Positions 1-16,660 are shown, counted from the stretch's first letter. The stretch: 16,660 nt of DNA from Leptospiraceae bacterium (GCA_016711485.1 JADJSX010000013.1:214889-231548); one strand, 5' to 3'. Notes: generated by a model not told the origin, from the letters alone. Translations and numbers: made by a program.

Positions 1-367
1 CAAGTTTAAAGAAAATCGAAAGAATATTTTATTTCTAAGTAAAAAACAACTGCAAGAAATTGAGGATCGAATAGCATTCTTAATCCATGCGACTAAAAAT
101 TTAAATCTCTTCAATGTATCGCTTACGGATATTCGTTGTATTGCGTATGGTTGGATTTTGGATGTGCCCGTTGTCACGGAAGATAAAGATATGACTAAAT
201 TGGCAAATGAATTTGAAATAAAAATTATTAAAACTTTAGATCTTATTAAACTAATGTATCATGCCAAATATGTATCAAAACAAAAATTATTAGAATTAAA
301 AAAATATTTAAAGTCAATAAATGAATATCCTAAATCATACGATATTTTTTTTAATTCAATTCAGTGA
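1..367 (+). CDS. 3' end of a gene continuing upstream of the window. The C-terminal region resembles a PIN-domain nuclease: the motif VVTEDKD matches the C-terminal T-x-D acidic motif of PIN/VapC.
   Basis: Frame 2 is open from base 2 to the TGA at 365-367, with no in-frame ATG before the ORF-track TTG at 158. The sequence ...SLTDIRCIAYGWILDVPVVTEDKDMTKL... is PIN-like. The stop lies 12 bp before the start of the next gene, suggesting an operon. Confidence 0.45.
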   Translation, partial: KFKENRKNILFLSKKQLQEIEDRIAFLIHATKNLNLFNVSLTDIRCIAYGWILDVPVVTEDKDMTKLANEFEIKIIKTLDLIKLMYHAKYVSKQKLLELKKYLKSINEYPKSYDIFFNSIQ

Positions 368-1191
368 GGAATCCCAAACATGTCCATTACCTTTTATAAA
401 ACTCACGAAAAACAACTTGAGAAAATTCTACAAGACTATAAAAAGAAAATTTCCAAATCGGATAACGAACTATTTACCGATCCATCCATTTCTCATTTTA
501 AAAGATTTGAAACTGAATTATTTAAACACAAACTTCGCCCTTACCAAATGGAAGCGCTGTATATTCTAGATGCTCTCTACACTCAAAGTAAATCCGATAA
601 GGATATAAAGAAACTCTATGAAAAACTTTTAGAGTCACACGGAAAAGAAAATCCAGTTAAGATTCCTTTTATTGGCTATGAAATGGCAACCGGATCAGGC
701 AAGACAACGCTAATGGGGGCATGTATCTGTTATCTGCTAGAGCAAGGAATTAAAAACTTTCTAATCATTACACCAAAGTCCTTGGACATATACAATAAAA
801 CAATTCGCAATTTCACAAAAGGGGGAGCTGATTCTATTTGGGATAGAGAAGCGCCTGTTAAGTTTAATCTAATAACAGGAGATGATTACAACCATTTACA
901 ATTTAATTCTGATAAGGACTTTAATTTATTTATTTTCAACATTGACAAATTCGGTCCCAATGCAAACAAAACATCGAAAGAGTGGGAGAGTTCTTACTTC
1001 AAAGATAAGAACGGAAATACGATCAGCGTAAAAGAATTTTTAGAAAATGAAGACCTTGCTATTATAACGGATGAAGCTCATCACTCACAAAGTCAGAGTG
1101 CTGGTGGTTCGGGAAATATTAGAGTTGTTGCAAAATTAGAAATATCCTAAAAAAAGCTTGTACAAAAACAATCGAGTTATTTATTTTCTGT

Positions 1192-1563
1192 ATGAAGAAT
1201 ATAGAAAAGATATTAAAAAAGAAACGACTTTGTCAGGCATTGACAGGAGTATCGCCTGAAAAAATTTATGAAAGTCTTCCCTATTTTGAAATTGAATTAG
1301 AAAAACATGACAAGAAAGAAAAGAAATCATCGAAAGGAAGAAAAACTGAACTAACAAATTCGTTAGAGAAATTATTTTTCATTCTATACTATGTAAAATG
1401 CTATCCCACATTCGATGAAGCAGGCTTTTTCTTTGGCGTCGATAAAGGAACAGCAAATCGGTGGGTTCATAAGTATTCGAAAATACTAGAGTCTACTTTA
1501 AAAACAATGATGCTATTACCCGCACGAAAGCCTAAAAAGATTACTGATAAATTGAAAAGATGA
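1192..1563 (+). CDS. IS transposase OrfA (N-terminal HTH part of a DDE_Tnp_4 transposase).
   Basis: 123-aa ORF. The motif ...LFFILYYVKCYPTFDEAGFFFGVDKGTANRWVHKY... is typical of the N-terminal region of IS5/Harbinger-type transposases. It ends at a TGA overlapping the -1-frame start of the catalytic part. Confidence 0.7.
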   Translation: MKNIEKILKKKRLCQALTGVSPEKIYESLPYFEIELEKHDKKEKKSSKGRKTELTNSLEKLFFILYYVKCYPTFDEAGFFFGVDKGTANRWVHKYSKILESTLKTMMLLPARKPKKITDKLKR

Positions 1564-2195
1564 AAGAAAATAATGAAGAAATTTTTATTGATGGAACTGA
1601 AAGACCCAGAAGAAGACCGAAAAATAAGGATATTCAAAAAGAAAACTATTCAGGAAAAAAGAAACGGCATACAGTTAAAAATTTAGTTATTACAAATCGA
1701 AAAAAAGAAATCTTATATACCCTTCGCCAAAAGTAATTTCCCTTTTTGTAAAAAATAGGGTATTCCCAAACGCCAAAAATAAGACTCTTTTAAAAACGAA
1801 TGGGTAATTACTTTTGGCGTTTGGTATATTTATCTAACACAGTGCAAGGCTCAATGCATGATTTCGTATTGATGAAAGAAACACTAGTCAAAAATTATCT
1901 TCCGTCCGAAATGAAAGTTTATGTCGATACTGGATTTCTAGGCTTCCAAAAACTAAGTCCTGATCTAAATATCTTTATGCCTAAAAAGAAACCTAAATCT
2001 AGAACTCTTTTTCAATACGAAAAAAAACAGAATAGAAAGATTTCAAAACTTAGAATTCTCGTTGAACATGCAATAGGCGGCATAAAGAGACTTCGCGGAG
2101 TCACTGATGTATTTAGAAACATCAAAAAAGGATTTTCAGATTTAATCATGAATATATGCTGCGGATTATGGAATTTAAACTTGAAAAAATTTTAG
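1560..2195 (+). pseudogene. IS transposase OrfB (DDE catalytic domain, -1 frame relative to OrfA), disrupted by a MITE insertion that introduces a stop at 1735-1737.
   Basis: Frame 1560+3k reads MKENNEEIFIDGTERPRRRPKNKDIQKENYSGKKKRHTVKNLVITNRKKEILYT, then a stop inside the inserted element. The same frame resumes as VYLSNTVQGSMHDFVLMKETL...YVDTGF...ILVEHAIGGIKRLRGVTDVFRN, giving the DDE triad (D in IDGTE, D in YVDTGF, E in VEHAIGGIK) and the family signature SGKKKRHT. Confidence 0.7.
1717..1828. mobile_element. MITE-like ~110-bp non-autonomous element (copy A) nested inside the IS transposase gene.
   Basis: Imperfect ~26-bp terminal inverted repeats: left 1715-1740 TATACCCTTCGCCAAAAGTAATTTCC, and the reverse complement of the right end 1803-1829 ATATACCAAACGCCAAAAGTAATTACC. 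An internal third copy of the repeat core (1761-1785 TATTCCCAAACGCCAAAAATAAG) forms a perfect 13-bp hairpin with the right end. It is flanked by a TA/TAT duplication (TATATA / TATAT). Removing 111 bp restores an uninterrupted transposase (…EILY-LSNTVQGSMHDF…) that matches DDE_Tnp_4 spacing. Confidence 0.6.
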
Positions 2196-4711
2196 ACTAA
2201 CATAAAATCGAATTTTGCAACAACTCTATTATAAAAAACTTTCATCCCAAAGTAGTATTGGAATTTACCGCAACTGCTTTAGAAGATACAAAGTCAGACG
2301 AGAAACGTGCTCAAAAGGTCGTTTATAAGTATGATATCAGAAAATTCTTAGAACAAAAATATGGAAAACGAATAAAAGCAGTTGCACTGGATACCGAATC
2401 CATTAAACGAACAAAGAAAACGGAAATTCCTGACTCAGAAAAATGGAAGCTAATTACATTATACCTCTTTCATATTCTAAAAAAGAAAGCCTTACTTTTA
2501 TCAGAGAGCACAAAAAATTTAAAACCATTGGCTCTAATCAAAGTAAAAGATGATTCGATTTATGCAAAAAAAATCTATGACTATATTATAAATGAACTCC
2601 CAAATGATGAATCCAATATAAAAATCATATTAGAGAAAATTAAGACAGAAGAAATAGATGTTGTTCCTACTCTTAAAGCTGTTCTAGAAGATTTATTTCA
2701 ATTCGATCTAACCAAAATTAAAAAAGAATTAGAACGATTGATTGTGGCAAAAACTTTACTTTATTCAGGAGATTTGGACAAAGAACAAAAAGAGGGATTC
2801 CTAAAAATCCAAACTAACTTATACGAAAGCATTGTTTTTATTAAACGTCTAGACGAAGGAATTGATTTACCGAATATTTACACCATTGCTGTTATCAACG
2901 ACAATGAATCAGACTTTAAAACTTCGGTTAAGCAGATTATTGGTCGCGGCGTTCGACTGCCAAAGTTAACAAGAGAATATGATGAGGAACACGATTTATT
3001 ACAAGCTCAATCAGAAATTCTACATATAATATGCGATAGAGGCAAGAATTTTGAAAAAATCATCGAGGACATTAAGGCTGAATTTGATTTGAATGAATTT
3101 TTATTTTCTAACAATTCTAAGCATAAAGTCACAATAACCAACATTGTAAAAAAACATTTACTGAAAGATAAAAAAATTCCAATCATTAAAGCATCTGATA
3201 AAATAAAGAAAGATGTAACATTAGACGGACTCATGTCAGATACGGATGCAATCGTGAACTCATATATTCAACATAATTGCACGCCAAATCCTGATAAGTC
3301 GAGAGTTTACTTAAAATTTGCCCCTACTTCTTTTTTCACAATTATAGATATTTTCTCTGATGATTTCACTTTCTTAAAGGCAATGGAAGAAAAAGGAATA
3401 CCGTCCGAAAAATTTCAAATCAATGAGGATGATTATAAGGAGATTTATACAAGGATTGTAAAAAAAGTTCCTCATATACCAGATAGTGCGAAATACAAAG
3501 ATTATTTTAAAAAATACATTGATCATCTAGTTCAAAAAGATTTTTATTTTTTTAAATCAGACGACGCGGATAAAGAAATTGCTAAAAGGAAATTCAAAGA
3601 TTCATTTTGTTATTTTTTTGATAACTATATTCACAAACATTATTACCAACCAGATTATAAACAAATTCATGAAGACCAATATTTAGAATTGGAAGATATT
3701 TTTAAAGATGTAGAAATTTCTATTCAGCAAGATGCGATAGGATCTAAACAAAAGAAAAAATTAGAAACCTTAGTTCATGATTTTGCAAAAATGGCAGAAC
3801 TAGTCAAACAAGGTCATTATTTTAATGGATATAAATACTCTTTATATGATTACACAAGATTTGATTCTTATACAGAAAAACAATTAGCGGATTACTTGGA
3901 GGAACTGATTGGAAAATTAGAAAATCCAGAACAATATTTTTGGGTAAAAAGTGAACGGCAGTTTAGTTTTCAATATGGTAACCAAAGATACTTTCCGGAT
4001 TTTTTATTTCATTATTCTGATATGATGAATATTATCGAGACGAAAGCAGAGCCGTTTTCAAATCAAAAGAAAAATGCACTGTTAGAAAAAGTAAATGAAA
4101 TAGATGGGTATCGCGGAATTTTAATTTACTCTGATAAAATGGATGATATCCAAAAACAAAATAATGATGTTCCTTTTGAAGATTTACTTGGAGTTTCGAA
4201 GCAGTCATTCAAATATGAAAAATATAAAAATCATCTTATCTATAGTATAGAAGAGAATTTAAAGTTCACTGAATTTTTACCTTTCTATTCCGTGAAAGCA
4301 GCCGCAGGTGCGTTTAGTGAATCGCAAGAAGCTAATCCTGAAGGATGGCTTCCAGTAAAAAAAGGCAAATATTCCAAAACATCTTTTGTGATTCAGGTCA
4401 AAGGTCATTCAATGAGTCCAAACATTTTCGATGGAGATCTTTGTATTTTTGACAATCATTTCGTTGGTTCAAAAAATGAAAAAACCGTATTGGTGCAACA
4501 TAGAGACATTTTTGATCCAGATAACGGAGGAAAATATACCGTTAAGCGTTACTACAGTAAGAAAATTCAATCAGAAGAAGAATTGATTGGAAACTATAGA
4601 ATAGAATTAAAACCAACTAATTCTAATTACAAATCTATTATTCTTGAAAAAGCATTAGAGGCTGAAATTAAATTTATAGGAGTCTTTGTAGATACAGTAG
4701 CATTACCTCAA

Positions 4712-4737
4712 GCCGAATAAAGATTCGGCATTTTTTT
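4712..4737 (+). terminator. Rho-independent terminator of the helicase-nuclease-peptidase gene.
   Basis: Stem GCCGAAT (4712-4718), loop AAAG, stem ATTCGGC (4723-4729), followed by a T7 run (4731-4737). The stop codon TAA lies inside the stem-loop. Confidence 0.55.
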
Positions 4738-4841
4738 CTTTTTCATGGAATTGTACAAAAAATTGTAAATTTAATTCAATTAGTAAATTATTTTTATTTT
4801 TTTTATTTGTAATTCATCTTCCATGTAAAAATAATTATCTC

Positions 4842-5933
4842 ATGAACTCCAAACCCACCGGCATCTCTACTCCAACATACAACTCCATCCTAAAAGACAT
4901 CTCCCTCATTTACGAAAACGCACAAAGTGAAGGTGATGGAAATTGGAACAAAACAAATCTATTCGCTCACTGGAAAATCGGAGAAAGGATAATCGAAGTC
5001 GAACAAGGGCAAAAAGAAAGAGCGGCTTACGGGGATATGGTGCTAAAGCAACTTTCAAAAGATTTGAACAGAAAGTTTGGAAAAGGATTTTCAGATAGAA
5101 ACTTGCGGTATATGAGAAAGTTCTATCAGACCTACAAAATGAAAGAAGTGCAATCAGTTCTATCGTGGAGTCATTATCGGGAATTGTTACTTGTGGATGA
5201 TTCTTCGGTGAGAATAAAGCTAGAAAACCAAGCGATTCGGGAACGGTGGTCACAACTAGAATTACAAAAACGGGTTAAATTAGCTATAGCCGGTAAAGGC
5301 GAAAAAACAGAGTCAGAAAAGCAAGATGAGCCAATAAAAGACAGTTTGAAACGACCATTGATGAGGCTCTATTTATACCGCACTTTACGAAAATTTTCGT
5401 CAGATTTGGAACAGTCTGTTCCAAATCTGGATCTAGGTTTTTCGATTCGTTTAAAGGTTAATAGATATTATGCGTTTTTATCTTCAAATGGGAGTGATTT
5501 GAATAAACTCAAAGTCGGTTCGGTGATTGAGTCACGGAAGAAAGGTAATTCGTATTATTTTGAGTCTATTTCTAGCAGCAAAGAGATGTTTACCTACAAA
5601 GCTTATTTGGAGAGAGTTATTGACGGAGATACTTTGCTTGTTACTATTGATTTGGGTTTTTCGGTTTTCATTGAGCAAAGGTTGCGGCTGCGTGGATTAA
5701 ACGCTCCTGAGCTTGGGACAAGTAAAGGTAACGCGACGAAGAAATTTGTAGAGTCTCGTTTAATGGATTGTGATTTTTTGATTATTAAAACTCACGGAGC
5801 TGACAAATACGATCGTTATTTGGTGGATGTATTTTATTTGGGGGGTGTGGATAATGAGGATAAGGTTTTACGAGATGGGACTTTTTTGAATAATGAGTTG
5901 TTGGAAGAAGGATTGGTTGGCTTTGTGACCTAA
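4842..5933 (+). CDS. Fusion protein: a DUF1016_N (YhcG-like N-terminal) domain joined to a staphylococcal-nuclease (SNase/thermonuclease)-like domain.
   Basis: N-terminal region ...ERAAYGDMVLKQLSKDLNRKFGKGFSDRNLRYMRKFYQTY... matches the DUF1016 N-terminal consensus. C-terminal region ~5617-5930, VIDGDTLLV...RLRLRGLNAPELGT...KYDRYLVDVFYLGG, matches SNase motifs (V.DGDT, RL.GIDAPE, D.YGR). Confidence 0.75.
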   Translation: MNSKPTGISTPTYNSILKDISLIYENAQSEGDGNWNKTNLFAHWKIGERIIEVEQGQKERAAYGDMVLKQLSKDLNRKFGKGFSDRNLRYMRKFYQTYKMKEVQSVLSWSHYRELLLVDDSSVRIKLENQAIRERWSQLELQKRVKLAIAGKGEKTESEKQDEPIKDSLKRPLMRLYLYRTLRKFSSDLEQSVPNLDLGFSIRLKVNRYYAFLSSNGSDLNKLKVGSVIESRKKGNSYYFESISSSKEMFTYKAYLERVIDGDTLLVTIDLGFSVFIEQRLRLRGLNAPELGTSKGNATKKFVESRLMDCDFLIIKTHGADKYDRYLVDVFYLGGVDNEDKVLRDGTFLNNELLEEGLVGFVT

Positions 5934-5971
5934 CCCCAATTTTTTATTACTTGGTTTACTTTTACAATGAA

Positions 5972-6034
5972 GCCCCTTCCCTAATCCTATTTTTGTATCT
6001 CCTGCTGTTAAATAGAGAGCTTCAGGGAAGGGGC
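5972..6034. repeat. GC-rich inverted repeat or hairpin (11-bp stem GCCCCTTCCCT / AGGGAAGGGGC, 41-nt loop) downstream of the DUF1016-SNase gene.
   Basis: 5972-5982 is the exact reverse complement of 6024-6034. There is no following U-run, so it is not a canonical intrinsic terminator. Confidence 0.5.
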
Positions 6035-6148
6035 AACTTGTGAGTATTCTATTGGAGTAAAAAACTAGAACTAAGAAAAGGTCTTAATGGAGCATTGCGA
6101 AGTGTTAAAGAGAAAAAGTCTGAGCTGCGGGTTTTCTTTTCTTTTTTG

Positions 6149-6195
6149 CTTACTTTTTTCTTTTCTTTTTCATAAAAGAAAAGAAAAAAGTAAGA
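6149..6195. repeat. Perfect ~21-bp polypyrimidine/polypurine inverted repeat (hairpin) with a 5-nt loop.
   Basis: CTTACTTTTTTCTTTTCTTTT (6149-6169), loop TCATA, AAAAGAAAAGAAAAAAGTAAG (6175-6195). Confidence 0.6.
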
Positions 6196-6268
6196 ATCCC
6201 CCCACGGGAGTGGAGATAATAAAGATCTCCCCCACTGGGCAGCGGTAATAAAAAATAATCTCCCTCTG
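6195..6268. repeat. Imperfect tandem direct repeats with C5-6 cores (AATCCCCCCACGGGAGTGGAGATAATAAAG / ATCTCCCCCACTGGGCAGCGGTAATAAAAAAT / AATCTCCCTCTGAG...).
   Basis: Two or three adjacent units of ~30 bp share ATCTCCCCCAC-GGG followed by an A-rich tail. The C/G-rich cores stand out in an AT-rich genome. Confidence 0.45.
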
Positions 6269-6312
6269 AGAAAAGAAAGTCCGACAACGACGACGCGTTA
6301 GGGATCGAACGA

Positions 6313-6348
6313 TGTCATCTTTTTTTATCTTTTTGAAAAAAGATGACA
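6313..6348. repeat. 13-bp inverted repeat or hairpin (TGTCATCTTTTTT / AAAAAAGATGACA) with a 10-nt loop.
   Basis: 6313-6325 is the reverse complement of 6336-6348. Confidence 0.5.
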
Positions 6349-6503
6349 ATAGTGAGAGCCCGGCGCATTTAACGAAAGAATAAATCAAAATAAAAATTAG
6401 TTAAGCTAAAACTTTAAATGCGCAACGCCCCAAAAAAAGTAATAAATTCAAGGTTTCTAATTACCACCGGAAACAAGGATATTAAAATCTCTTTCCACTA
6501 AAA

Positions 6504-6533
6504 TTCTACTTGCTTGTAAACAAATCTTACAAT
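6504..6533 (+). promoter_or_regulatory. Weak candidate sigma70-type promoter for cstA (-35 TTCTAC, 18-nt spacer, -10 TACAAT).
   Basis: TACAAT at 6528-6533 lies 13 nt upstream of ATG 6546. No SD is visible, so the transcript would have a very short leader or be leaderless. This call is speculative. Confidence 0.2.
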
Positions 6534-6545
6534 GCTTAGTAAAGC

Positions 6546-8399
6546 ATGCTTCCGATGATCATTGTTTTAGTCTGTCTTATTACCTATTTTTTTGGATATC
6601 GTTTTTACTCTCGCTACTTAGCCGAAAAAGTTTTTGGGCTTAGGGATAAAGAATTTATTACCCCAGCACATAAACACAATGACGGTGTGGACTATGTTCC
6701 GACTAAACCAAACGTTCTATTTGGTCATCATTTCGCGTCTATCGCTGGGCTTGCTCCAATTTTGGGACCTGCAGTAGCTGTAATTTGGGGTTGGCTTCCT
6801 GCAATGGTTTGGGTTGTATTGGGTGGAGTATTCATGGGTTGTGTACATGACTTTGGCGCACTCATTGTTTCCGTTCGCCACGATGCAAAATCAATTGGTC
6901 AAGTGGCTGAAGATTTACTCGGACATAGAGCACGTTCTTTATTTCATATCATTATTTTCTTTTTAGTTTCTCTCGCTATGGGAGTGTTTGTATTAGTCAT
7001 TGCCGGACTTTATTCAGCTCCACCAAAACCTATTGAAATAAAATCTCCGACTGTATTAGAGCAACCCGTTACAGTAAAGGAAGTAAAAGAAGGACACGAC
7101 AGCGGAGATTTGCAAAAAAAGGAACCTACAAAAATCCAACTTAGAAGTAATTTTCCAGAATCAGTAACTCCAACTTTAGTATTGATGCTTTTAGCGGTTA
7201 TCGTTGGTTACCTCCACTATAAAAAATCTTATCCTCTTGGTCCACTCACTGTTCTCAGTTTTTTTATTACCCTTTTTGTAATCTACTTTAGTATGGATGA
7301 AAGTTTTCTCGGTTTTATCGGTTTAAATGATATAGATAGGGCACCTTCGACTGATGCTTGGAAATTAATTTTGCTGGCCTATGCATTTTTAGCTTCTGTA
7401 ACACCAGTCTGGTTATTATTACAAAGTAGAGATTATATAAATTCATTCTTGCTCTATTTGGGGATAATCCTAATTTATCTCGGTTACTTTATAGGAAGTA
7501 TCAATGGAAATTTTCCGAGTTTTAACGCGGCTCCCCTTCGAACTGAGGAAATCGGAATGGATATTCTACCATTTGTATTTATTACAATCGCTTGCGGTGC
7601 CATTTCTGGATTTCATGCACTCGTAAGCTCTGGAACTACAGCCAAACAAATCAATGTAGAAAAAGATGCACGGGTCATTGGGTATGGCGGAATGATTGGC
7701 GAGTCTCTTCTTGGGCTAACAGCCGTTATCGCCTGCACAATTGGATTTTCTTCCATGGAAGAATGGAATTCTTATTATAAATCTTGGTCTGGTTTACAAG
7801 GATTAAACGTTCAAGTTGGAGCATACATCTATGGAACAAGTCGTTTTTTAGGTCAACTTGGAATTCCAGAAAAATTTGGACAAGGATTTATCGCACTAAT
7901 TGTAATCAGTTTTGCACTCACATCTTTAGATTCAGCGACCCGACTCCTTAGATACAACATCGAAGAAATCGTTCATTCTATTGGTTCAAAACCCCTCAAT
8001 CTACTACTTGCAAATCGTTACTCATCTAGCATTCTAGCTTGTGCTTCCATTGCATTCTTTGCATTTCTCAAAATAAATGTAAATGGACAAATGAAACCAG
8101 CAGGGCTTGCACTCTGGAAAGTATTCGGAACTACAAACCAACTACTTGCCGGTTTATCATTGTTAGTCGTATTTATTTATTTATTAAAATCCAAAAAACC
8201 AACGATCAATATATTCATTCCAATGATATTTGTATTACTTGTTACCCTGTGGGCAATGGTTGGAAACTTTTTAGAATTTGTGTCTGGAGCTACACCAAAT
8301 TATCTGCTTGCTTGCGTGGGTGGAATATTAATAGTACTGACAGTTTGGCTTTTGGTAGAAGGAATATTAGTTTGGAAAAAAATAAAAAAAGTCAATTAA
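6546..8399 (+). CDS. cstA: Carbon starvation protein A (CstA family peptide/pyruvate transporter).
   Basis: 617-aa polytopic membrane protein. The N-terminal ...[16 protein letters not shown]... and overall hydrophobic architecture with a central loop match CstA. Internal overlapping ORFs (7592..7780, 8039..8407) are spurious. Confidence 0.9.
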
Positions 8400-8727
8400 A
8401 ATCCTGAATCGCACTCCCTTCCGAATCATAGAGTTTAAAACTTAAGTCTAGCTTAGTTAGGGCAAACAAACGTTTTACTTCATCACTTAAATCAGCAAAT
8501 TTAATAGAGATACCTTTCTGTTGGCATTCAAAAAATAGATTCGTCAGAAATCCTAAACCAGAAGAATCAATAAAATGAACTTTTTTAAGATTAAATAAAA
8601 TTTTAGAATTTTCACTACGAGTAAGTATTTTACAGAATTTTTTTAATTCAGGTACAGAATACAAATCCATGGAATTCTCTATACTTACTATATTTACACC
8701 ACCAATAATTCTATGTGAAAAAGCCAT
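8392..8727 (-). CDS. STAS-domain anti-sigma factor antagonist (SpoIIAA/RsbV-like), paralog 1.
   Basis: 111 aa carrying the ...[16 protein letters not shown]... hallmark (phosphorylatable Ser in DSSGLG). An SD AAGAGGA lies 8 nt upstream of the start on the - strand. The 3' end overlaps the cstA 3' end by 8 bp, and the two genes are convergent. Confidence 0.85.
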
Positions 8728-8867
8728 TTTCTGTATCCTCTTACATTAACCTTCAAATAATACTTAATATTACTGATTCTATTTACCCGTTGCATAGGAT
8801 CTTATACCATTTCGACTTATTTGAGATGGTTAGATACTATTCTTTTTGAAATGATATAAACATTTTG

Positions 8868-9206
8868 TTAAGTTCGAAATGAATAAATTGCATCTTGAAT
8901 TGATTCATAAAATGCATAATTCTGAGATAATTTTGTAACAGCAAAAACTCTCTTTGCCTCTTTACTTAAACTCGCTAGTTTAATTTCAATTCCTTTCTGT
9001 TTACATTCAAAAAATAGATTCACGACCATACCAAGTCCCGATGAGTCTACAAATGTAACATTTTCCATGGAGATAATGATCTTACTATTAACCGACTTTA
9101 GCAATGATTTTGCAAATTTTTTTATTAACGGTGTAGAATATAAATCAATAGAACCTTCCAGACTAAGTATATCGACTCCGTTTTCTTCTCTATGAACATA
9201 ACTCAT
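8868..9206 (-). CDS. STAS-domain anti-sigma factor antagonist (SpoIIAA/RsbV-like), paralog 2.
   Basis: 112 aa carrying ...VTFVDSSGLGMVVNLF.... It is about 45% identical to paralog 1. An SD GGGAGA lies upstream of the start. Confidence 0.85.
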   Translation of the reverse strand: MSYVHREENGVDILSLEGSIDLYSTPLIKKFAKSLLKSVNSKIIISMENVTFVDSSGLGMVVNLFFECKQKGIEIKLASLSKEAKRVFAVTKLSQNYAFYESIQDAIYSFRT

Positions 9207-9464
9207 TTAATTATTTATCTCCCATATCAATTAGGTCAATATTTTTCTTACTAAGATTATTTGTATAGCTTCATTTTCTACTTAATTTTTGTAACTTCTT
9301 TTGTTGACCACAGAGGCTCAGAGGCACGGTTTTTTTTGGAATTATGTCATTTTTAAGCGCATGAATCACTCGAATGAGAAGTGATGAAAAATTTTGATCC
9401 TGCTGCTCAGATTTCTAATTCTAAACAATGCTTTCTGCCAAACACTACTCCCTATAAACCCGTA

Positions 9465-9574
9465 TATACCCAACGTCAAAAGAATTTTCCTTTTATTAAA
9501 AGATGGATATTCCCAATTGCCGAATAAAAGGTTCATTTAAAATGAATAGGTAATTACTTTTGGCAATTGGTATA
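9465..9574. mobile_element. Second, diverged copy (copy B) of the MITE-like element, in the divergent intergenic region between the STAS genes and the kinase gene.
   Basis: The ~110-bp sequence aligns along its full length with 1717-1828 at roughly 75% identity. It has the same three-repeat architecture: left terminal repeat TATACCCAACGTCAAAAGAATTTTCC, an internal copy ATTCCCAATTGCCGAATAAAAGG, and a right terminal repeat GGTAATTACTTTTGGCAATTGGTATA. It is flanked by TA. Confidence 0.6.
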
Positions 9575-9810
9575 AACAATTATTTTTTGTGTTAGAAATT
9601 TTATTGGAAATTGCTAAACTCAATGTATTTTACCATTCGTCTAAGAAATACAAAAAAAATGCTTAAAAACATAAATTTACTCGTTCATTGGATTTTTACT
9701 TGCATTTCTTTATTGTATTCCCCAATGTACTGAAGTCAGGAGATTTGTGATTAGAAAAGGATTATTTTTTAGTTTCAGAAGTAGAAAACTCCCAGCTTTT
9801 CAATTTAAAG

Positions 9811-11115
9811 ATGCAGAATTATCCAACTAGCGAATCAAAAATTTTACTAGATAAACCACAAATTTTAATTGTGGATGACGATCGTAAAACTTTTGAATTA
9901 TTCAAAATCGCACTGGAAAATAAATACGAACTTACCTTTTGTTCAAACGAATTAGAAATATTTGAACAAATTAATTTTCCTTTTTCCGCAGCCATTATAA
10001 ACATAAAGTTGGAAACCAAAAATGAATTCAAAACCATTCAAGAAATTAAAAATAAAAACATAAATATTCCTATTATTTTTCATTCAGACTATAAAGACTC
10101 AATCAATACAATCATAATTAAAAATGAATATAAACCGTTCGCATACGTTATAAAAGAAGAAAACTTTAACAAACTCCTCGACACCTTAGAAAGTGCAGTG
10201 CAATACTTTCAACAAATCAATCAAAATTTAGTTTTGGCTCAGACGTTAGACAAGTTAGAACATAACTATAGAGACTTAGTAGAGAACTCTCCCGATATTA
10301 TTTTTTCACTAGATGAGAATTGGAGACTAATTTCAATTAATGAATCAGTAACACAAATTTTACGTTATCCGGTAAAGGAAATATTAAATAAAACAATATT
10401 GAACCTAGAATTTAAATTAAATAACCCAACAAGTGGAATTTTAGAAAAAAAATTACAAGAACTTACATTATCCCAAAATACTATCTCATTCAATTGTGAT
10501 TTGGTTACCAAATTTGGAGAACCAAAAGAGATGCATTTAAAGTTACGATATGTAAATCAGAAAAATGGACACACTTTTTTTGGTACTGCCACAACAAATG
10601 AAGAAGATATACTATTGCGTATCTGTGAATCCGAATCACAGATTTATAAATTAGGAAATTATTTAACTCATGTAGATATTATTACACAGAGATTAGCAAA
10701 TTATTCTTCAAAGTATTGTACGCCAGAAATTCTTATGAACCTAAAACTATGTATTAGAGAGTTAATCATTAATGCAATGGAACACGGAAATTTAGGAATT
10801 AGTTTTGAAGAAAAATCCGAATCTCTCATGAATGGAACATACATTGAACTACTCATCAAAAGACAAAGAAACAAAACACATGCCGACAAACAAATTACGG
10901 TCGAATACTCATTAACCCCAAAAAGGATAGAAGTAAAAATCACTGATGAAGGAGAGGGATTTGATCATCAAAAAATGTTATCTAGATCAATTAACCAATT
11001 AGATGATAATATCCTCGGTCACGGTCGCGGAATTGCCTTAGTAAAAAATTATATAGACTCAATAGTTTACAATGAAAAAGGAAATTCTGTACATATAATA
11101 AAGAATTTTATTTAA
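9811..11115 (+). CDS. Three-domain regulator: N-terminal receiver-like domain lacking the phospho-acceptor Asp (pseudo-receiver), a PAS domain, and a C-terminal HATPase_c anti-sigma-factor-type serine kinase (RsbW/SpoIIAB/RsbT-like).
   Basis: The receiver-like region has ILIVDDD...AAIINIKLE (Asn where the conserved Asp is expected), ...IIFHSDY...YKPF. The PAS-like region is SPDIIFSLDENWRLISINESVTQILRYP. HATPase_c motifs: ELIINAMEHGN (N-box), ITDEGEGFD (G1), GHGRGIALV (G2). Confidence 0.75.
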   Translation: MQNYPTSESKILLDKPQILIVDDDRKTFELFKIALENKYELTFCSNELEIFEQINFPFSAAIINIKLETKNEFKTIQEIKNKNINIPIIFHSDYKDSINTIIIKNEYKPFAYVIKEENFNKLLDTLESAVQYFQQINQNLVLAQTLDKLEHNYRDLVENSPDIIFSLDENWRLISINESVTQILRYPVKEILNKTILNLEFKLNNPTSGILEKKLQELTLSQNTISFNCDLVTKFGEPKEMHLKLRYVNQKNGHTFFGTATTNEEDILLRICESESQIYKLGNYLTHVDIITQRLANYSSKYCTPEILMNLKLCIRELIINAMEHGNLGISFEEKSESLMNGTYIELLIKRQRNKTHADKQITVEYSLTPKRIEVKITDEGEGFDHQKMLSRSINQLDDNILGHGRGIALVKNYIDSIVYNEKGNSVHIIKNFI

Positions 11116-11119
11116 TTCA

Positions 11120-11150
11120 CTCACCTTACGCACAAGCGCGTTGAGGTGAG
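11120..11150 (+). terminator. GC-rich compound hairpin immediately after the kinase gene stop. It may be a terminator or a structured RNA. There is no U-run.
   Basis: CTCACCTT-ACGC-acaagc-GCGT-t-GAGGTGAG gives a ~12-bp stem. It sits inside an unusually GC-rich ~100-bp patch (11118-11215) of an AT-rich genome. Confidence 0.35.
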
Positions 11151-11422
11151 AGATTGGGCAATCGGCGACACTTCAACGATCGCTCAGTGTATCGCTTGGG
11201 CTGCCGCCCAAACCTGCTTATTCATTAGCTTTATCTAATATTCTTAACTTTGCTTTAAATTTCATAATTTTTCTTTTTTGCGTAACGTCAGTTAATTCAG
11301 TTCAAATCATTATTTCTTCAAAAAAATTTAGCTTTTTACTTTTAAGTATTGAATCAATGAATACAAATCCGCTTGACTAGATGTATCACTCAATCAAAAT
11401 TAGAGTGGGCTGAATAAATTAT

Positions 11423-13948
11423 ATGAAATACTTACTTTATTTCCTGACATTCCTTCTATTATTTCAATGCAAAATAGTCGGTAAAAACAATACAATTCCT
11501 TTAAATGGAGAATGGAAATATAGAAATGGATTCGATATTGATTGGCTTTCAAATCCCGGCAGTGACAAAAAATGGAAAAGTATTTCCCTTCCGACAAATC
11601 TATCGAAAGAACTAAATCTGGAAGGATATACTGGGTATATTACACTCAGAAGAGAACTTCCTAAATCATTAAACACATATTTACTAAATGGAAAACCACT
11701 TGCTATCAATGCAGGAAGAGTTCTAGATGTTTCTTACTTTTATTTTAATAAAACTCTAATTGGTCAATTAGGATCTTCTTCACCGTATCAAGCGGGAGCG
11801 ATGAGACCTTTTTTAAAAGATATTCCATTTAATGACATACAGACAAATGATAAAAATTCTATTACCATTGTTCTTTACACAAATACTAAATATCCGCTTC
11901 AATTCATGGACACGATTGAAATTGGAGAATCAGATACAATTTATTCCTCCTATACCAAAAAGGAAATTTATTCATTTTTCTTTTTAACCATTTACCTCAT
12001 AGTAGGATTGTATCATATTTTACTTGCCAGCAAACGAAAGAAAGATTTGTACAATCTCTATTTTGGATTATTTAGTGTATTTGCATCAATCTACTGGTTT
12101 ATAGCAAATACGTTGTCTAGAGACGCAGTTTTTCAAGATTATGTTGACCTTCAGAGAAAACTAGAACACGTTTTTCTATTTACCCTTAGCCCTACTCTAC
12201 TTTTATTTTTAGTACAGTTCTTTGAAAAAAAATACAACCGTATATCGAAAGGATTAGCAGGATTTTGCGCTACGATTATTGTTTTGACAATTCTACTCCC
12301 ACTTCCGGTCATGAGAGTTAGTACAATGTTATGGCAATTGTCAACTTTATTCATTGGACCGTATATGGTCTATTATTTGCTAAAACAAATCAAACAAGGA
12401 AATAAAGAAGGAATCTACTTAATTGTTGGACTTTCTATATTTGTATTAGGTGGGCTATTGGATATGGCGACATCACGGGATTATATCCATTTACCTCAAC
12501 TTTCTAATTTTACATTTTTGATATTTGTAATGGGAATTGCAACAATCATGGCAAATCGATTTATGGCAATCACAAATGAAGTTGAAACTCTTAACTTAGA
12601 ATTAGAAAAAAAAGTAGAGGATAGAACAAAAAAACTTTCCGAAAGTTTAGACCAAGTGCAAATTCTAAAAGAAAAACAAGACGGTGATTATTATTTAACA
12701 TCCCTTTTAGTAAAACCACTTTCTGGTAATTTCATTCAAGGCAAAGAAACAGATATTAAAGCAGAAACCCTTATTCGTCAAAAAAAACAATTTCAATTTA
12801 AAAAGAAAAATAGTGAAATCGGCGGAGATATTTGTATCATCGATGAAATCGAATTGGCAAATGTCACTTACACCGTATTTCTGAATGCAGATGCAATGGG
12901 AAAATCAATTCAAGGCGCAGGCGGATGCCTTGTATTGGGAACTGTATTCAAATCTATTTTACAAAGAAATCACTCTTTATCGCATACTCGTAGAAATCCC
13001 CCGGAGTTATGGATGAAAGAATCATTCCGAGAATTACAGAATGTATTTGTATCATTTAACGGTTCCATGCTTATTTCAGCAATGTTCGGTATTATAGATA
13101 ATCGAAATGGAATCATTTATTATATTAACGCCGAACATCCATTTACCGCACTGTATAGACATGGAAAAGCAAGTTTTATGGACGCTGAAACATTTAGAAG
13201 AAAAATTGGAATTGATGTAAAATACAATCCATTAAGAATCCACATTTTCCAACTAAAACCGGGAGATAGTGTGATAGCGGGCTCGGACGGAAGAGACGAC
13301 CTTTTAATTGGAGAAAGTAAAGAAGGTGAAAGAATAATTAACGAAGATGAGAACTTATTTTTAAAAATTCTCGAAGAGGCAAAGGGAGATTTGTCGACGA
13401 TTGAATCACTCCTTCAGTCAAAAGGAGAATTAACAGACGATTTATCTCTATTAAAAATTACCTATGATAAAAAACCAAAACCTACAACAAAAGTTGACCA
13501 AAAAGAAATCCAAAGAATAATGAAAGAGGCTTATTCTTATTATCTGAAAGGCGATAAAACTATCGCAATAACTAAGTATGAAAAAATATTTCAATTAGCA
13601 AATGACGTAGGACTAATAGAAGAAATTGCAAATCTATTTATTGAAAAAAAAGACTATTCATTTTCCAGTCAAATTTTAGACAAATATCTAATAGAAAATC
13701 CAGTAAATTCGAATATGCTTTACATCGCATCCTTCATTAAGAAAAAAAATAGAGAATACAAAGAAGCTGCAATTTTAGGAGAGAGATACAGACTGAGAGA
13801 ACCGCGCAATATAAAAAATCTAGTGAACTTGGCAGATACATACAGATACTTAAATAAAATTGAAAAAACACGAAAGTTTATTAACCGTGCCCTACAATTA
13901 GATCCTCAAAATAGACACGCTTTAAAACTTAAAGAAATTTTAGTATGA
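11423..13948 (+). CDS. Sensor PP2C-type serine phosphatase (RsbU/SpoIIE-like): N-terminal 7TMR-DISM extracellular domain, 7-TM region, PP2C-SIG phosphatase domain, and C-terminal TPR repeats.
   Basis: Signal-like N-terminus. GEWKYRNGFDIDWLSNPGSDKKWKSISLP matches 7TMR-DISMED2. Multiple TM helices lie between 11990 and 12560, followed by a coiled coil. PP2C motifs: DGDYYL, GGDICIID, NADAMGKSIQGAGG, SDGRDD. The C-terminal TPR-like region is YYLKGDKTIAITKYEKIFQLAND...ALQLDPQN. Confidence 0.85.
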   Translation: MKYLLYFLTFLLLFQCKIVGKNNTIPLNGEWKYRNGFDIDWLSNPGSDKKWKSISLPTNLSKELNLEGYTGYITLRRELPKSLNTYLLNGKPLAINAGRVLDVSYFYFNKTLIGQLGSSSPYQAGAMRPFLKDIPFNDIQTNDKNSITIVLYTNTKYPLQFMDTIEIGESDTIYSSYTKKEIYSFFFLTIYLIVGLYHILLASKRKKDLYNLYFGLFSVFASIYWFIANTLSRDAVFQDYVDLQRKLEHVFLFTLSPTLLLFLVQFFEKKYNRISKGLAGFCATIIVLTILLPLPVMRVSTMLWQLSTLFIGPYMVYYLLKQIKQGNKEGIYLIVGLSIFVLGGLLDMATSRDYIHLPQLSNFTFLIFVMGIATIMANRFMAITNEVETLNLELEKKVEDRTKKLSESLDQVQILKEKQDGDYYLTSLLVKPLSGNFIQGKETDIKAETLIRQKKQFQFKKKNSEIGGDICIIDEIELANVTYTVFLNADAMGKSIQGAGGCLVLGTVFKSILQRNHSLSHTRRNPPELWMKESFRELQNVFVSFNGSMLISAMFGIIDNRNGIIYYINAEHPFTALYRHGKASFMDAETFRRKIGIDVKYNPLRIHIFQLKPGDSVIAGSDGRDDLLIGESKEGERIINEDENLFLKILEEAKGDLSTIESLLQSKGELTDDLSLLKITYDKKPKPTTKVDQKEIQRIMKEAYSYYLKGDKTIAITKYEKIFQLANDVGLIEEIANLFIEKKDYSFSSQILDKYLIENPVNSNMLYIASFIKKKNREYKEAAILGERYRLREPRNIKNLVNLADTYRYLNKIEKTRKFINRALQLDPQNRHALKLKEILV

Positions 13949-14005: not shown

Positions 14006-14818
14006 ATGAATATTATACAAGCAAATCAAAACTACTTTAAAACAATGCTGAATGAATATGCGGCAAATACACCATGTTCACAAGCAGTATTCGCGGTAAA
14101 TGATAATATACTTCTTCACTACGGCACCGAAATTCATCCAAAATCAACTATGTTGCAAATGGTCGATGACTTAAAAAAATTTGATTTACTTGCCAACTTA
14201 CTCGCCGGTCAAATTAGATTTAGCAAAATCACTACTATCGAAAAAAATCAGCAAAAGTACGACATATACACCTACTCTATCGAAAAAAACAAAAGTATCT
14301 TTCGAAGTATATTTCTAATTCCATCGGGACAGATTCCACATGAATCCGAATTCAAATTATTAAATGATCTTGTCTTAAATTATTATCTGAACCTTCCCCA
14401 AAATAAGGACTTTCAATTCATTGAAACATATTCAGAATTTTTAGAACTAGCCACAAAGGAAATTGGAAATCATTTTAACTCAATTGAGGAGGAAGGTGTA
14501 GTCTCGCATTTTTATATTCAAAACCTGCAAGTTTACTATAAGAATATGAGCCAACAATATTCAGAAGAGATACATAAACAAATCCGTTTAGGAATTCTGC
14601 GTCACTTAAAAAAAGGTGATTTATTATTCCGTGTTAGCCAAAGATCTTATATTACCTATTCCCATAATTGTAATATTGATTCTGTCAAAAAACGTTTCAG
14701 TGATATTTTTTTTCAACTGAATACCCTCATTATTCGTTATCAATTATTTTTTCATCAAAATAACTCAACTAATTTCAGAAAAAGAGAATTCTGGGACAAA
14801 ATTCTTTCCGTAGACTAG
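14006..14818 (+). CDS. Hypothetical protein of 270 aa. The N-terminal third is weakly reminiscent of a Roadblock/LC7 (MglB-like) fold, but this is speculative.
   Basis: Intact ORF with no recognisable catalytic motifs. It lies downstream of the sensor phosphatase, and TTGACA (13960-13965) could serve as a -35 element. It overlaps the convergent downstream gene by 4 bp. Confidence 0.5.
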   Translation: MNIIQANQNYFKTMLNEYAANTPCSQAVFAVNDNILLHYGTEIHPKSTMLQMVDDLKKFDLLANLLAGQIRFSKITTIEKNQQKYDIYTYSIEKNKSIFRSIFLIPSGQIPHESEFKLLNDLVLNYYLNLPQNKDFQFIETYSEFLELATKEIGNHFNSIEEEGVVSHFYIQNLQVYYKNMSQQYSEEIHKQIRLGILRHLKKGDLLFRVSQRSYITYSHNCNIDSVKKRFSDIFFQLNTLIIRYQLFFHQNNSTNFRKREFWDKILSVD

Positions 14819-16660
14819 AGTTTAACACCCATTATCCTTTGATATGTTTCCCCAGTTTCGTCCGTAGTTTTTGTATAAACAAATTTCAAAACTGAAAACT
14901 TTGAGTATTTTGTTTCGGATTCAGTTTTGTATTCCCATAATAATCCCCATAAACTCCCACTTCCCTCATATCCTCTTTCTTTCGGAACGGAAGTTTTGTA
15001 ATACAAAATTCCCATTAATACATTAAGGTGATCTTCTTTTTTAATTTTATCGGAACTTTTATAATAAAGTGCTCCAAGACCTGCATGTTCCATAGATTCC
15101 GATTCAGTTTTATTTGAGTAATACAATGTAGGTGCAAACCAAACAAGTTTTTCAGAAATAGATTTTTCAGAGTAGTAGAAAGGCAGTATATTATTGTAAG
15201 AATATTGTTTTTTTTCTTTGGAAGAAAACCAAAATAAATTCATACTAGTTTCTTTTATATTAGAAGAGTAATTTCCCAATCCATATAATAGTTTTACATT
15301 TACTTCCTCTTTTGCATTCGCAAATTGTATAGCTCTAAATAAAAACGTAACTTCCCTTTTATTTGTTTCCTTAGAATATTCATGTTCAGCTAACATTAAA
15401 AAATTTTGTGAATTTCTCTTTGAATTAGAACTCCAATACATCCCTAAAATAAATGCCGAATATTCATTATTTGCCTCTGAGGAGAAATATAACGGGAAAA
15501 AATGTGTATAAGTTTTCGGACTATCTATATTCTCAGTATTTAAAGAATACCAAAATGGAAATAATACCAATCGAACTAATTTTCCTTTTTTATAAGCCGA
15601 ATCATAGAACATCAAAATATTTCTATGTTCCTCTTCTATGTTTGAATTTTTGTAATATATAAAAGGAATAATCGGAAATAAAATACTTCTTTCGTATATT
15701 TTATTTTTTTCAGTTTTAGATTCCAGTTCGAAATCGTTGTATAAAAGTGAGAGAAAAGTTTTATCAAATTTTTGCGAGTTAACATCTTCTTCTTTTTTAT
15801 AAAAAAACAATGGCAAAACCCAAAGGGAAGATTTTTGAAGACCTTGTTTTTTTTCTTCATCGTAATACGTAATAGGAAAAAAACTAAAAGAAGTTTTTGT
15901 ATTGGTTCTTTCTCTACTTACTATTCCTAGCCAATTTGAATATGTTTCTCCGGGATTCTCAGAGTGATAAGCTAATAAAAGAGGCAGAACCCATTTTTTG
16001 TGTGTATCATTTCGATTTGTATAAAATCCCAAAATTGAATAAAAAGAAAATTCCGAATTAGAAACTTCTCTCGTTTTATCTCCGTTATCCTCTGCATGGA
16101 GTTGTGTTTTCTTCGATTTATTCCAAAAATAAATAGGAGCAAACCAATTCGTGTAGTTATAGTTTTTACTATCCTGCTCAAAAAAATCTTGATAGAATAT
16201 AGGAAATATTTTTATATTATGCGCAGTTTTTGATTTTTCATAAGAAGATAAACCCAACCAATTCCAATAAGATTCATTATTCTCTGATTTATAAGAATGA
16301 TATAATACTGGAATTGGAAAAAACCAACTTGTATCTTCGAAATTTTTAGACTTAATTTCGGAGGTATTATAAAAAATGAAAGGAGAATAAAGACTAACCG
16401 CTTCAGTTTCATCCTTAGACTTTGCAGTATCTTTTTTATAATAAAATGGAAAAATCCAGCGGCTAATAGACGTTACTTTCCCATTTTTATATTCAATACT
16501 ATTATAATACAAAGGTAAAACTTTGGATGAATTCTCCGTTTTCGAGTCTTCATAACTAGCAAATAATAACCAGTTCCAATACGTTTCCTCATTTGCCTTC
16601 AAGTAAGAATGATAGATAAATGGAATAGGAAAAAATAATTTTTTATTTGTATGATTATAA
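14815..16660 (-). CDS. Large tandem-repeat protein, 5'-partial. The frame is open to the window edge, so the ORF-track TTG at 16602 is not the true start. It is built from degenerate ~45-55-aa repeats rich in Trp/Tyr/Phe/Pro.
   Basis: Repeats such as ETYWNWLLFASYEDSKTENSSKVLPLYY, ESYWNWLGLSSYEKSKTAHNIKIFPIFYQ, ETYSNWLGIVSRERTNTKTSFSFFPITYY and YTNWFAPIYFWNKSKK occur at least 8 times. The minus-strand frame stays open through 16603-16660 (…NHTNKKLFFPIPFIYHSYLKANEETYWNW…). Confidence 0.65.
   Translation of the reverse strand, partial: YNHTNKKLFFPIPFIYHSYLKANEETYWNWLLFASYEDSKTENSSKVLPLYYNSIEYKNGKVTSISRWIFPFYYKKDTAKSKDETEAVSLYSPFIFYNTSEIKSKNFEDTSWFFPIPVLYHSYKSENNESYWNWLGLSSYEKSKTAHNIKIFPIFYQDFFEQDSKNYNYTNWFAPIYFWNKSKKTQLHAEDNGDKTREVSNSEFSFYSILGFYTNRNDTHKKWVLPLLLAYHSENPGETYSNWLGIVSRERTNTKTSFSFFPITYYDEEKKQGLQKSSLWVLPLFFYKKEEDVNSQKFDKTFLSLLYNDFELESKTEKNKIYERSILFPIIPFIYYKNSNIEEEHRNILMFYDSAYKKGKLVRLVLFPFWYSLNTENIDSPKTYTHFFPLYFSSEANNEYSAFILGMYWSSNSKRNSQNFLMLAEHEYSKETNKREVTFLFRAIQFANAKEEVNVKLLYGLGNYSSNIKETSMNLFWFSSKEKKQYSYNNILPFYYSEKSISEKLVWFAPTLYYSNKTESESMEHAGLGALYYKSSDKIKKEDHLNVLMGILYYKTSVPKERGYEGSGSLWGLLWEYKTESETKYSKFSVLKFVYTKTTDETGETYQRIMGVKL

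Follow-up and report, generated by a model that had tools for sequence, protein, structure and literature searches.

The gene described here is a res-like gene at positions 380-4720 of a 16,660-nucleotide stretch of DNA from a Leptospiraceae bacterium (GCA_016711485.1 JADJSX010000013.1:214889-231548), called the window below, which is part of a metagenome-assembled genome. It is the helicase–nuclease gene (res) of a three-gene Type III-like restriction–modification (R-M) operon with the order UvrD-Cas4-like gene, Mod methylase gene, res. Its product ends in a Peptidase_S24 (S24) domain of the LexA/UmuD type, and this domain sets a whole clade of Res proteins apart from canonical Res subunits. 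The predicted catalytic signature of S24 is intact in the basal lineages of the clade (Spirochaetota and Lentisphaerae), the gene of the window included. We consider it probable that a live S24 domain cleaves its own chain at Ala939-Gly940, probably on stimulation by RecA filaments on single-stranded DNA (RecA*); that this turns restriction down is less certain, but more likely than the opposite.

Reconstruction of the interrupted res gene

The window contains two collinear open reading frames (ORFs), 380-1150 (256 aa) and 2258-4720 (820 aa), with three transposase fragments between them; the 820-aa product is identical to protein P0002 (NCBI annotation IPL26_11920). Between the two parts lies an insertion sequence (IS) of 1,107 bp (1121..2227; this and all features given without a strand are on the + strand), with the transposase domains HTH_Tnp_4 and DDE_Tnp_4 and 17-bp terminal inverted repeats AGAGTTGTTGCAAAATT at 1121 and 2227. 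It is flanked by a 3-bp target-site duplication, ATT, present as a direct repeat on either side (left copy 1118..1120, right copy 2228..2230). Excision of the IS with one ATT copy fuses 380-1120 to 2231-4720 and gives an ORF of 1,076 aa with zero internal stops. A reading made from the sequence alone had posited an IS-interrupted single protein of about 1075 aa, and the reconstruction agrees with it. The 5' part of the gene (380..1120) encodes residues 1-247, which comprise the N-terminal region and the RecA1 lobe of a superfamily 2 (SF2) helicase. The 3' part (2231..4720) encodes residues 248-1076 plus the stop codon, with motif III, the RecA2 lobe with motif VI, a middle region, the nuclease and S24.

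Architecture of the reconstructed protein

Pfam hidden Markov models (HMMs) match the reconstructed protein at residues 50-262 (ResIII, E 7.6e-20) and at residues 931-1067 (Peptidase_S24, E 9.8e-13, spanning the whole 116-position model). The helicase motifs are LRPYQ (motif Q/Ia, 533-547), ATGSGKT (Walker A, 686-706), DEAHH (motif II, 1070-1084), LEFTATA (motif III, 2258-2278) and QIIGRGVR (motif VI, 2930-2956). The PD-(D/E)xK nuclease core FPDFLFHYSDMMNIIETK (FPDFLF...IIETK) is encoded at 3992..4045. Its residues P836, D837, E850 and K852 and the helicase motifs are invariant across 53 homologs, and the core is also present, as PD...DVK or EVK, in a sister group that has no S24 domain. The reconstructed protein has no match to Pfam RE_endonuc; the nuclease call rests on motif and position.

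The AlphaFold2 model of the full-length protein has a mean confidence (pLDDT) of 81.4, and the PDB entry most similar to it is EcoP15I Res (4zcf_C, E 7e-12), with SauUSI and HsdR next. For the PDB, comparison of folds alone was informative; searches by sequence gave no match with the single protein as query, only a weak match to HsdR (3h1t) with the family profile, and nothing meaningful with a profile of the C-terminal domain composed mostly of members with an altered catalytic signature. Comparison of the protein with PADLOC-DB v2 gave no system-level match (Gabija, DISARM, MADS and others); the only matches were mad8 (E 7e-4, 38 residues at Walker A) and REase_III (E 1.5e-3). Intact Res-like homologs from loci L004 and L008 match PADLOC REase_III with E about 1e-16 (3e-16). 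NCBIfam gave only weak matches to UmuD and BPTD_3080, far under the cut-offs.

The S24 domain is encoded at 4265..4717 (residues 926-1076). Its AlphaFold2 model (residues 900-1076) has a pLDDT of 93.6 and a predicted template-modelling (TM) score, pTM, of 0.89, and LexA, lambda cI or UmuD account for every one of its top 25 matches in the PDB (E 1e-5 to 4e-3, target TM 0.39-0.73). The predicted self-cleavage site Ala939-Gly940 (4304..4309) lies within LPFYSVKAAAGAF, in the motif KAAAGAF (4295-4315); the sequence at the cleavage site of E. coli LexA is LPLVGRVAAGEP. The predicted nucleophile is Ser974 (4409..4411), in GHSMSP (4403-4420), and the predicted general base is Lys1019 (4544..4546), in YTVKRY (4535-4552).

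Much of the sequence-only reading is thus borne out. The three-part architecture that it proposed (SF2 helicase, PD-(D/E)xK nuclease and S24) is supported by each of the motifs it quoted, all of which lie where it had placed them, by Pfam matches to both ResIII and Peptidase_S24 and by the models. The S24 module is complete as claimed, with a full-length Pfam match, the fold of LexA, cI and UmuD predicted with high confidence, and all three sites intact.

A Type III-like operon of three genes

There are 429 relatives of the protein at E < 1e-5 in the protein collection searched. The best 120 of them are mostly 1,060-1,100 aa long, about 40% identical at 99% query coverage, and come from Bacteroidota, Nitrospirota, KSB1, Spirochaetota and other phyla. 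Metagenome contigs with homologs carry the same operon of three genes in seven cases out of seven: a UvrD-Cas4-like gene (about 910-930 aa; domains UvrD-helicase and PDDEXK_1), a methylase gene (about 590-680 aa; domain N6_N4_Mtase) and the Res-like gene.

HMMs of the partner proteins (UvrD-PDDEXK and methylase) were scanned over 77 loci of GTDB species-representative genomes. A Type III Mod-like methylase is encoded upstream, on the same strand, in all 24 loci with an S24-bearing homolog; the Mod of L004 matches PADLOC MTase_III (E 3e-107). The UvrD-PDDEXK gene is present in 22 of these 24 loci; of the two without it, one is a contig of just 4 kb. The loci are thus not composed of mod and res only, and we call the system Type III-like rather than canonical because the UvrD-PDDEXK gene belongs to the operon.

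The sister group consists of proteins of about 910 aa (28-30% identity) from Patescibacteria, several other bacterial phyla and archaea. Its genes are also arranged as mod then res, without the C-terminal domain and mostly without the UvrD gene. The canonical Type III Res genes of Helicobacter pylori are still more distant relatives, with about 23% identity over the helicase part.

Since the window opens only 380 bp before res, the mod gene lies outside it. Contig L088, from another assembly, matches window positions 1-1241 with one mismatch, spans the IS junction and reaches 2,350 bp beyond the upstream end of the window. In order of distance from res, it has a 182-aa gene, a 377-aa gene with HTH_3 and Peptidase_M78 domains (RmrA-like in PADLOC) and, 1.7 kb upstream of res, the 3'-terminal 700 bp of mod, 81% identical to the Mod of L001. 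Positions 1-290 of L088 have no match to Mod, though Mod residues 450-683 come directly after them, and they differ from the IS of the window; the mod gene of this strain may also be disrupted or rearranged.

From the window, the sequence-only reading had seen no Mod upstream, had judged a canonical Type III system improbable and had taken the gene for a candidate defence effector, as yet undescribed. The first point holds within the window; beyond its edge, L088 has mod upstream of res. The other two are not supported: with Mod upstream in L088 and in every genome locus and metagenome contig counted above, the gene is no new effector standing by itself but the res of a Mod-linked operon that was noted in 2017. 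Intact homologs always sit beside a Mod methylase, the arrangement which that reading had itself named as speaking against a new effector.

Live, dead and duplicated forms of the S24 domain

The C-terminal domain is present in all 115 aligned members of the family, and its catalytic signature in only a few. We call the forms with the signature live and those without it dead. A single live domain with AAAG, G-x-S-M-x-P and T-V-K is found in the reconstructed protein and in P0001 (GCA_018063525.1, JAGPBE010000165.1), P0004, P0007 (OZ245742.1) and P0021. Two further proteins, from L039 (Leptospiraceae) and L054 (Lentisphaerae), have a single live domain with AACG, GKSMEP and TIK. Their cleavage site is of the Cys-Gly type, which is known from UmuD. 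The dead form, with A-Y/F-K-K-F, G-x-A-L-x-P and T-I-R, occurs in about 100 other members; these have Ala in place of Ser, Arg in place of Lys and no Ala-Gly. The profile built from 91 dead domains matches that of the live domains over 148 columns (99.8% probability, E 3.5e-29), so dead and live forms are one domain. In six proteins of about 1,230 aa (P0005, P0006, P0008, P0009, P0010 and P0015) a dead domain is followed by a second, live one, with an Ala-Gly or Cys-Gly site in five of the six. At least 12 sequences retain the full triad (Ala/Cys-Gly, Ser and Lys), with identities of just 34-63% between their S24 domains. Residues P931, A938 and W953 are invariant in live and dead forms alike.

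A neighbour-joining tree of the helicase–nuclease part was rooted on the S24-less sister group (100 bootstraps). All 100 bootstraps recover the S24-bearing clade. In none of them are the live forms monophyletic; they constitute a basal grade, in which the Cys-Gly pair branches first, as sister to all other S24-bearing members (72 of 100). The topology suggests, with moderate support, a single gain of a live S24 domain at the root of the clade and a loss of catalysis in the crown.

The same S24 subfamily on other enzymes

A profile (A3) built from 11 live domains matches 2,567 representative proteins at E <= 1e-3 and 441 at E <= 1e-30. The proteins are 150 to 1,969 aa long, and the match is nearly always at the extreme C-terminus. 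Among the best 150 matches, 142 were newly returned, and 97 of these have the strict pattern A[AC]G + GxSMxP + T[VIL]K.

Partner domains were identified by a Pfam scan of the 58 of these matches that are 400 aa or longer, which is a sample rather than a census and in which some proteins belong to more than one family. The best-represented partners are SLFN-g3/DUF2075 helicases and ResIII (15 proteins each), followed by Type_ISP_C (eight), Eco57I (five), N6_Mtase (four), DEAD-Helicase_C-MZB and GIY-YIG (three each), RE_AlwI, Methylase_S, HNH_4 and nSTAND3 (two each), and RE_LlaJI, MmeI_Mtase and PLDc_2 (one each). Eight architectures were checked singly and all end in S24, for example an MmeI-like Type IIG enzyme and Type ISP-like proteins composed of a methylase and a target recognition domain (TRD). 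DEAD-MZB helicases of 1,900 aa are also among the eight, and one of them carries a restriction-endonuclease-like domain as well. The Ser, Met, Gly and Lys of S24 are invariant in the 58 diverse fusion proteins. The subfamily also has invariant residues of its own, such as the Trp of a GW motif and a DPETGG stretch, both presumably missing from E. coli LexA.

Some short proteins seem to combine S24 with Type_ISP_C, T1RH-like_C or DUF2075. They were considered as small regulators, and this was rejected, as they match only the last 50-77 positions of those three profiles. Because the matches are partial, and because at least two of the loci continue into longer or frameshifted ORFs, these short matches are best read as 3' ends of larger genes.

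It is possible, and we put it forward tentatively, that S24 of this kind is a mobile LexA-type self-cleaving module which has repeatedly been fused to the C-termini of several classes of restriction enzymes (Type III-like Res, Type ISP, Type IIG resembling Eco57I or MmeI, Type IIS resembling AlwI, LlaJI-like, and proteins bearing the Type I specificity domain) and of defence helicases and NTPases. Such a module would impose direct RecA*/SOS control on its hosts, through restriction alleviation or, in some of them, through activation.

Locus L091 is a defence island (564-10890) that contains a PLD-SNF2 helicase, an N6 methylase and then a frameshifted Type ISP-like TRD-S24 gene (6013-7765). A Gabija-like pair (DUF2813/AAA_15 and a UvrD-like helicase) comes directly after the TRD-S24 gene.

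Proposed function of the S24 domain

In the account that we prefer, the S24 domain is an off-switch of the Res protein. As in the S24 family generally, it would cut its own chain in the intact protein, at Ala939-Gly940. Self-cleavage would most probably be stimulated by RecA-ssDNA filaments, by analogy with LexA, lambda cI and UmuD, and would free the last 137 residues (940-1076) from the helicase–nuclease body. Less certainly, the attached domain may have a positive role, for example in dimerisation or in contact with a partner. We think it more likely to be needed than inhibitory because most members with invariant helicase and nuclease residues keep an S24 domain that cannot be cleaved. Cleavage would lower restriction during DNA damage and thus act as an SOS-triggered off-switch (restriction alleviation), which is more likely than an effect in the opposite direction. 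This direction is favoured because repair and recombination create unmodified sites on the host chromosome, a problem common to all R-M partners of the domain.

Several observations weigh against this account. The res copy of the window is a pseudogene inactivated by the IS: the insertion point lies between helicase motif II (DEAHH) and motif III (TAT), and because the helicase is split there the gene is inactive as it stands. Nothing operates in this locus now, and for this genome the matter is moot because the IS breaks the gene. In both AlphaFold2 models, residues 935-942, Ala-Gly included, adopt a short helix and not the extended strand that cleavable LexA has there; most sequences in the alignment used for modelling are dead homologs. 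The dead crown of the tree is monophyletic in 56 of 100 bootstraps, so that the tree backs one loss of catalysis only moderately. Where a protein has a dead and a live domain, cleavage would remove the second domain only and leave the dead one in place, which does not fit a simple model based on the loss of a needed domain. Finally, given the fusions to NTPases outside R-M systems, the domain may activate its host protein in some contexts.

Such activation is what the sequence-only reading had proposed for the present protein: S24 would hold the helicase–nuclease inactive until RecA*, formed upon phage infection or DNA damage, triggered self-cleavage and an activation resembling abortive infection. 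The intact cleavage site, Ser and Lys agree with this, other defence systems sense DNA damage, and the occurrence of the subfamily on defence NTPases outside R-M (DUF2075 helicases and nSTAND3) is a setting in which an activating signal makes sense. However, about 100 members have a dead S24 domain without Ala-Gly and nevertheless keep invariant helicase and nuclease motifs; if S24 were a plug, it could not be removed from these proteins and they would be permanently inactive. Moreover, the Mod that is always present already supplies discrimination between self and non-self, and restriction that awaited the SOS response would come late. With most of the family keeping the domain in an uncleavable form, a nuclease activated by RecA* is not the direction we favour, and we regard it as unlikely.

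S24 might also be a structural module only, by which the protein dimerises or contacts DNA, Mod or the UvrD-like partner; it would never cleave, and its catalytic residues would be an unselected leftover. Most of the family works with a dead domain, the C-terminal domains of LexA, cI and UmuD are established dimerisation modules, and the invariance of P931, A938 and W953 in both forms points the same way. Against this stand the retention of the full triad, with both types of site (Ala-Gly and Cys-Gly), in sequences as divergent as those described above, the addition of a second live domain behind a dead one in six proteins, and the invariant Ser, Met, Gly and Lys of the 58 fusion proteins. The first two of these also count against the alternative, raised in the sequence-only reading, of a merely decorative domain on an ordinary Type III Res. 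We hold a purely structural function to be quite improbable.

Self-cleavage without RecA*, either as constitutive maturation or upon another trigger (a phage protein, ssDNA itself or the partner helicase–nuclease), would agree with the invariant GW Trp and DPETGG of the subfamily, through which the interaction surface may differ from that of LexA, but the well-studied LexA, lambda cI and UmuD all respond to RecA* and nothing in the loci suggests another trigger, so that we give it little credence.

We know of no established mechanism by which Type III, ISP or IIG enzymes spare their own chromosome after DNA damage. If the off-switch account is true, a built-in, RecA*-responsive self-cleaving domain would be a direct and simple answer, and restriction enzymes would join the short list of proteins under LexA-type autoproteolysis (repressors and UmuD). 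The recurrence of the domain on many kinds of restriction enzymes hints at a built-in DNA-damage switch for restriction. In this respect the Res family serves as a natural experiment, since the one domain occurs in it live, dead and dead plus live.

Comparison with described systems

The protein shares with Type III Res subunits (EcoP15I, 4ZCF; H. pylori) the N-terminal SF2 helicase, the C-terminal PD-(D/E)xK nuclease and the adjacent Mod-like N6_N4 methylase gene on the same strand. It differs from canonical ones by the third gene (UvrD-Cas4-like) of its operon and by the extra C-terminal S24 domain of about 150 aa. The gene order in the family is mod then res, and identity to the H. pylori Res is low, as given above for the helicase part.

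With LexA, lambda cI and UmuD, the S24 domain has in common the fold, the Ser-Lys dyad, an Ala-Gly or Cys-Gly site, the order site-Ser-Lys and the context LP-x-x-x-x-x-AAG. What differs is the predicted release partner, here a helicase–nuclease of 939 residues, there a repressor domain that binds DNA or a short arm at the N-terminus.

A functional analogy, and no more than that, exists with Type I enzymes, in which restriction is alleviated after DNA damage by ClpXP proteolysis of HsdR; this ClpXP-dependent alleviation was reported by Makovets, Murray and colleagues. Both would be damage-linked proteolytic control of a restriction subunit. ClpXP acts in trans, whereas here the protease would be within the enzyme and would respond directly to RecA*.

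The three-gene operon itself is already noted by comparative genomics: genes for UvrD-Cas4-like fusions most often adjoin Type III Mod and Res (Hudaiberdiev et al. 2017, PMC5704561). The loci of that study show the same trio, with UvrD fused to a PDDEXK_1/Cas4-like nuclease beside Mod and Res. It mentions no S24, LexA-like or peptidase domain on Res and proposes an ancillary role as the only function. In the literature searched we found no description of an S24 or LexA-like domain on restriction enzymes. The sequence-only reading had not recognised the fusion from described systems, and neither PADLOC nor this literature supplied a description. The S24 domain on Res, its live, dead and duplicated states and its recurrence on other enzymes therefore seem to be the undescribed part.

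Genes around res and other features of the window

Loci of the live-S24 clade carry cargo of other defence or toxin–antitoxin kinds in a slot at the mod-res junction. The locus of the window, L001 and L088 have there the HTH_3 + Peptidase_M78 (RmrA-like) gene and the 182-aa gene. The slot holds a cyclic-oligonucleotide-based antiphage signalling system (CBASS; CD-NTase + Cap15) in L005/L013, DarT + Macro (DarTG) in L011, which also has a PIN pair between uvrD and mod, a HEPN gene in L028, an AAA_15/AAA_21-DUF3696 ATPase gene with a 298-aa gene in L039, and an IS200-like transposase gene in L054. In dead-S24 loci the gap between mod and res is merely 1-9 bp. Two loci have decayed or rearranged copies of the system: in L028 (10001-15174), Res is split into pieces of 223 and 552 aa and the UvrD-like gene lies downstream instead of upstream, and L052 retains no more of the Res and UvrD-like genes than short fragments.

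The window begins with the 3' part of the 182-aa gene (2..367), which lies between mod and res, is 63% identical to a 185-aa protein of L001 and is present in full in L088. Together with the HTH_3 + Peptidase_M78 gene, just outside the window, it forms a two-gene cassette. Its product has no match in Pfam or NCBIfam. The sequence-only reading had called it PIN-like, and it may be a PIN-like toxin on account of the motifs IIDTN... and VVTEDKDM seen by eye; the HMM searches gave no support for this, and there is no similarity to the PIN protein of L011.

Directly 3' of res, the gene at 4842-5933 (+) encodes a DUF1016_N domain (E 6e-31) fused to a staphylococcal-nuclease (SNase) domain, which replaces the usual PD-(D/E)xK, and among the candidate families of PADLOC its product matches PDC-S02 (E 2e-37). 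In the Leptonemataceae locus L004, res is likewise followed directly by an SNase gene, there on the opposite strand. A functional tie between Res and this downstream gene was considered and rejected, since the downstream genes vary among homologs, although L004 has an SNase.

The transposase frame of the IS is broken into three ORFs (1192-1563, 1560-1736 and 1800-2195). A palindromic element of about 115 bp with 31-nt arms (1714-1828) lies within the transposase gene, accounts for part of this breakage and separates two in-frame pieces of the DDE domain; it probably made this IS copy non-autonomous. A second copy, 80% identical, is found at 9463-9574, in the intergenic region between a STAS and a response-regulator gene. 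The element looks like a small repeat of the miniature inverted-repeat transposable element (MITE) or repetitive extragenic palindromic (REP) type.

Genes that appear to have housekeeping and signalling roles occupy 6546-13948: CstA, two minus-strand genes for STAS anti-sigma antagonists, a receiver-PAS-HATPase_c_2 gene and a 7TMR-DISM-SpoIIE-TPR phosphatase gene. Together they look like a partner-switching module. The 270-aa product of 14006-14818 (+) has no match in Pfam or NCBIfam. The 595-aa product of 14815-16602 (-) has no Pfam match, and its C-terminus matches NCBIfam LA_1737, a name that we take to derive from a Leptospira interrogans locus tag.

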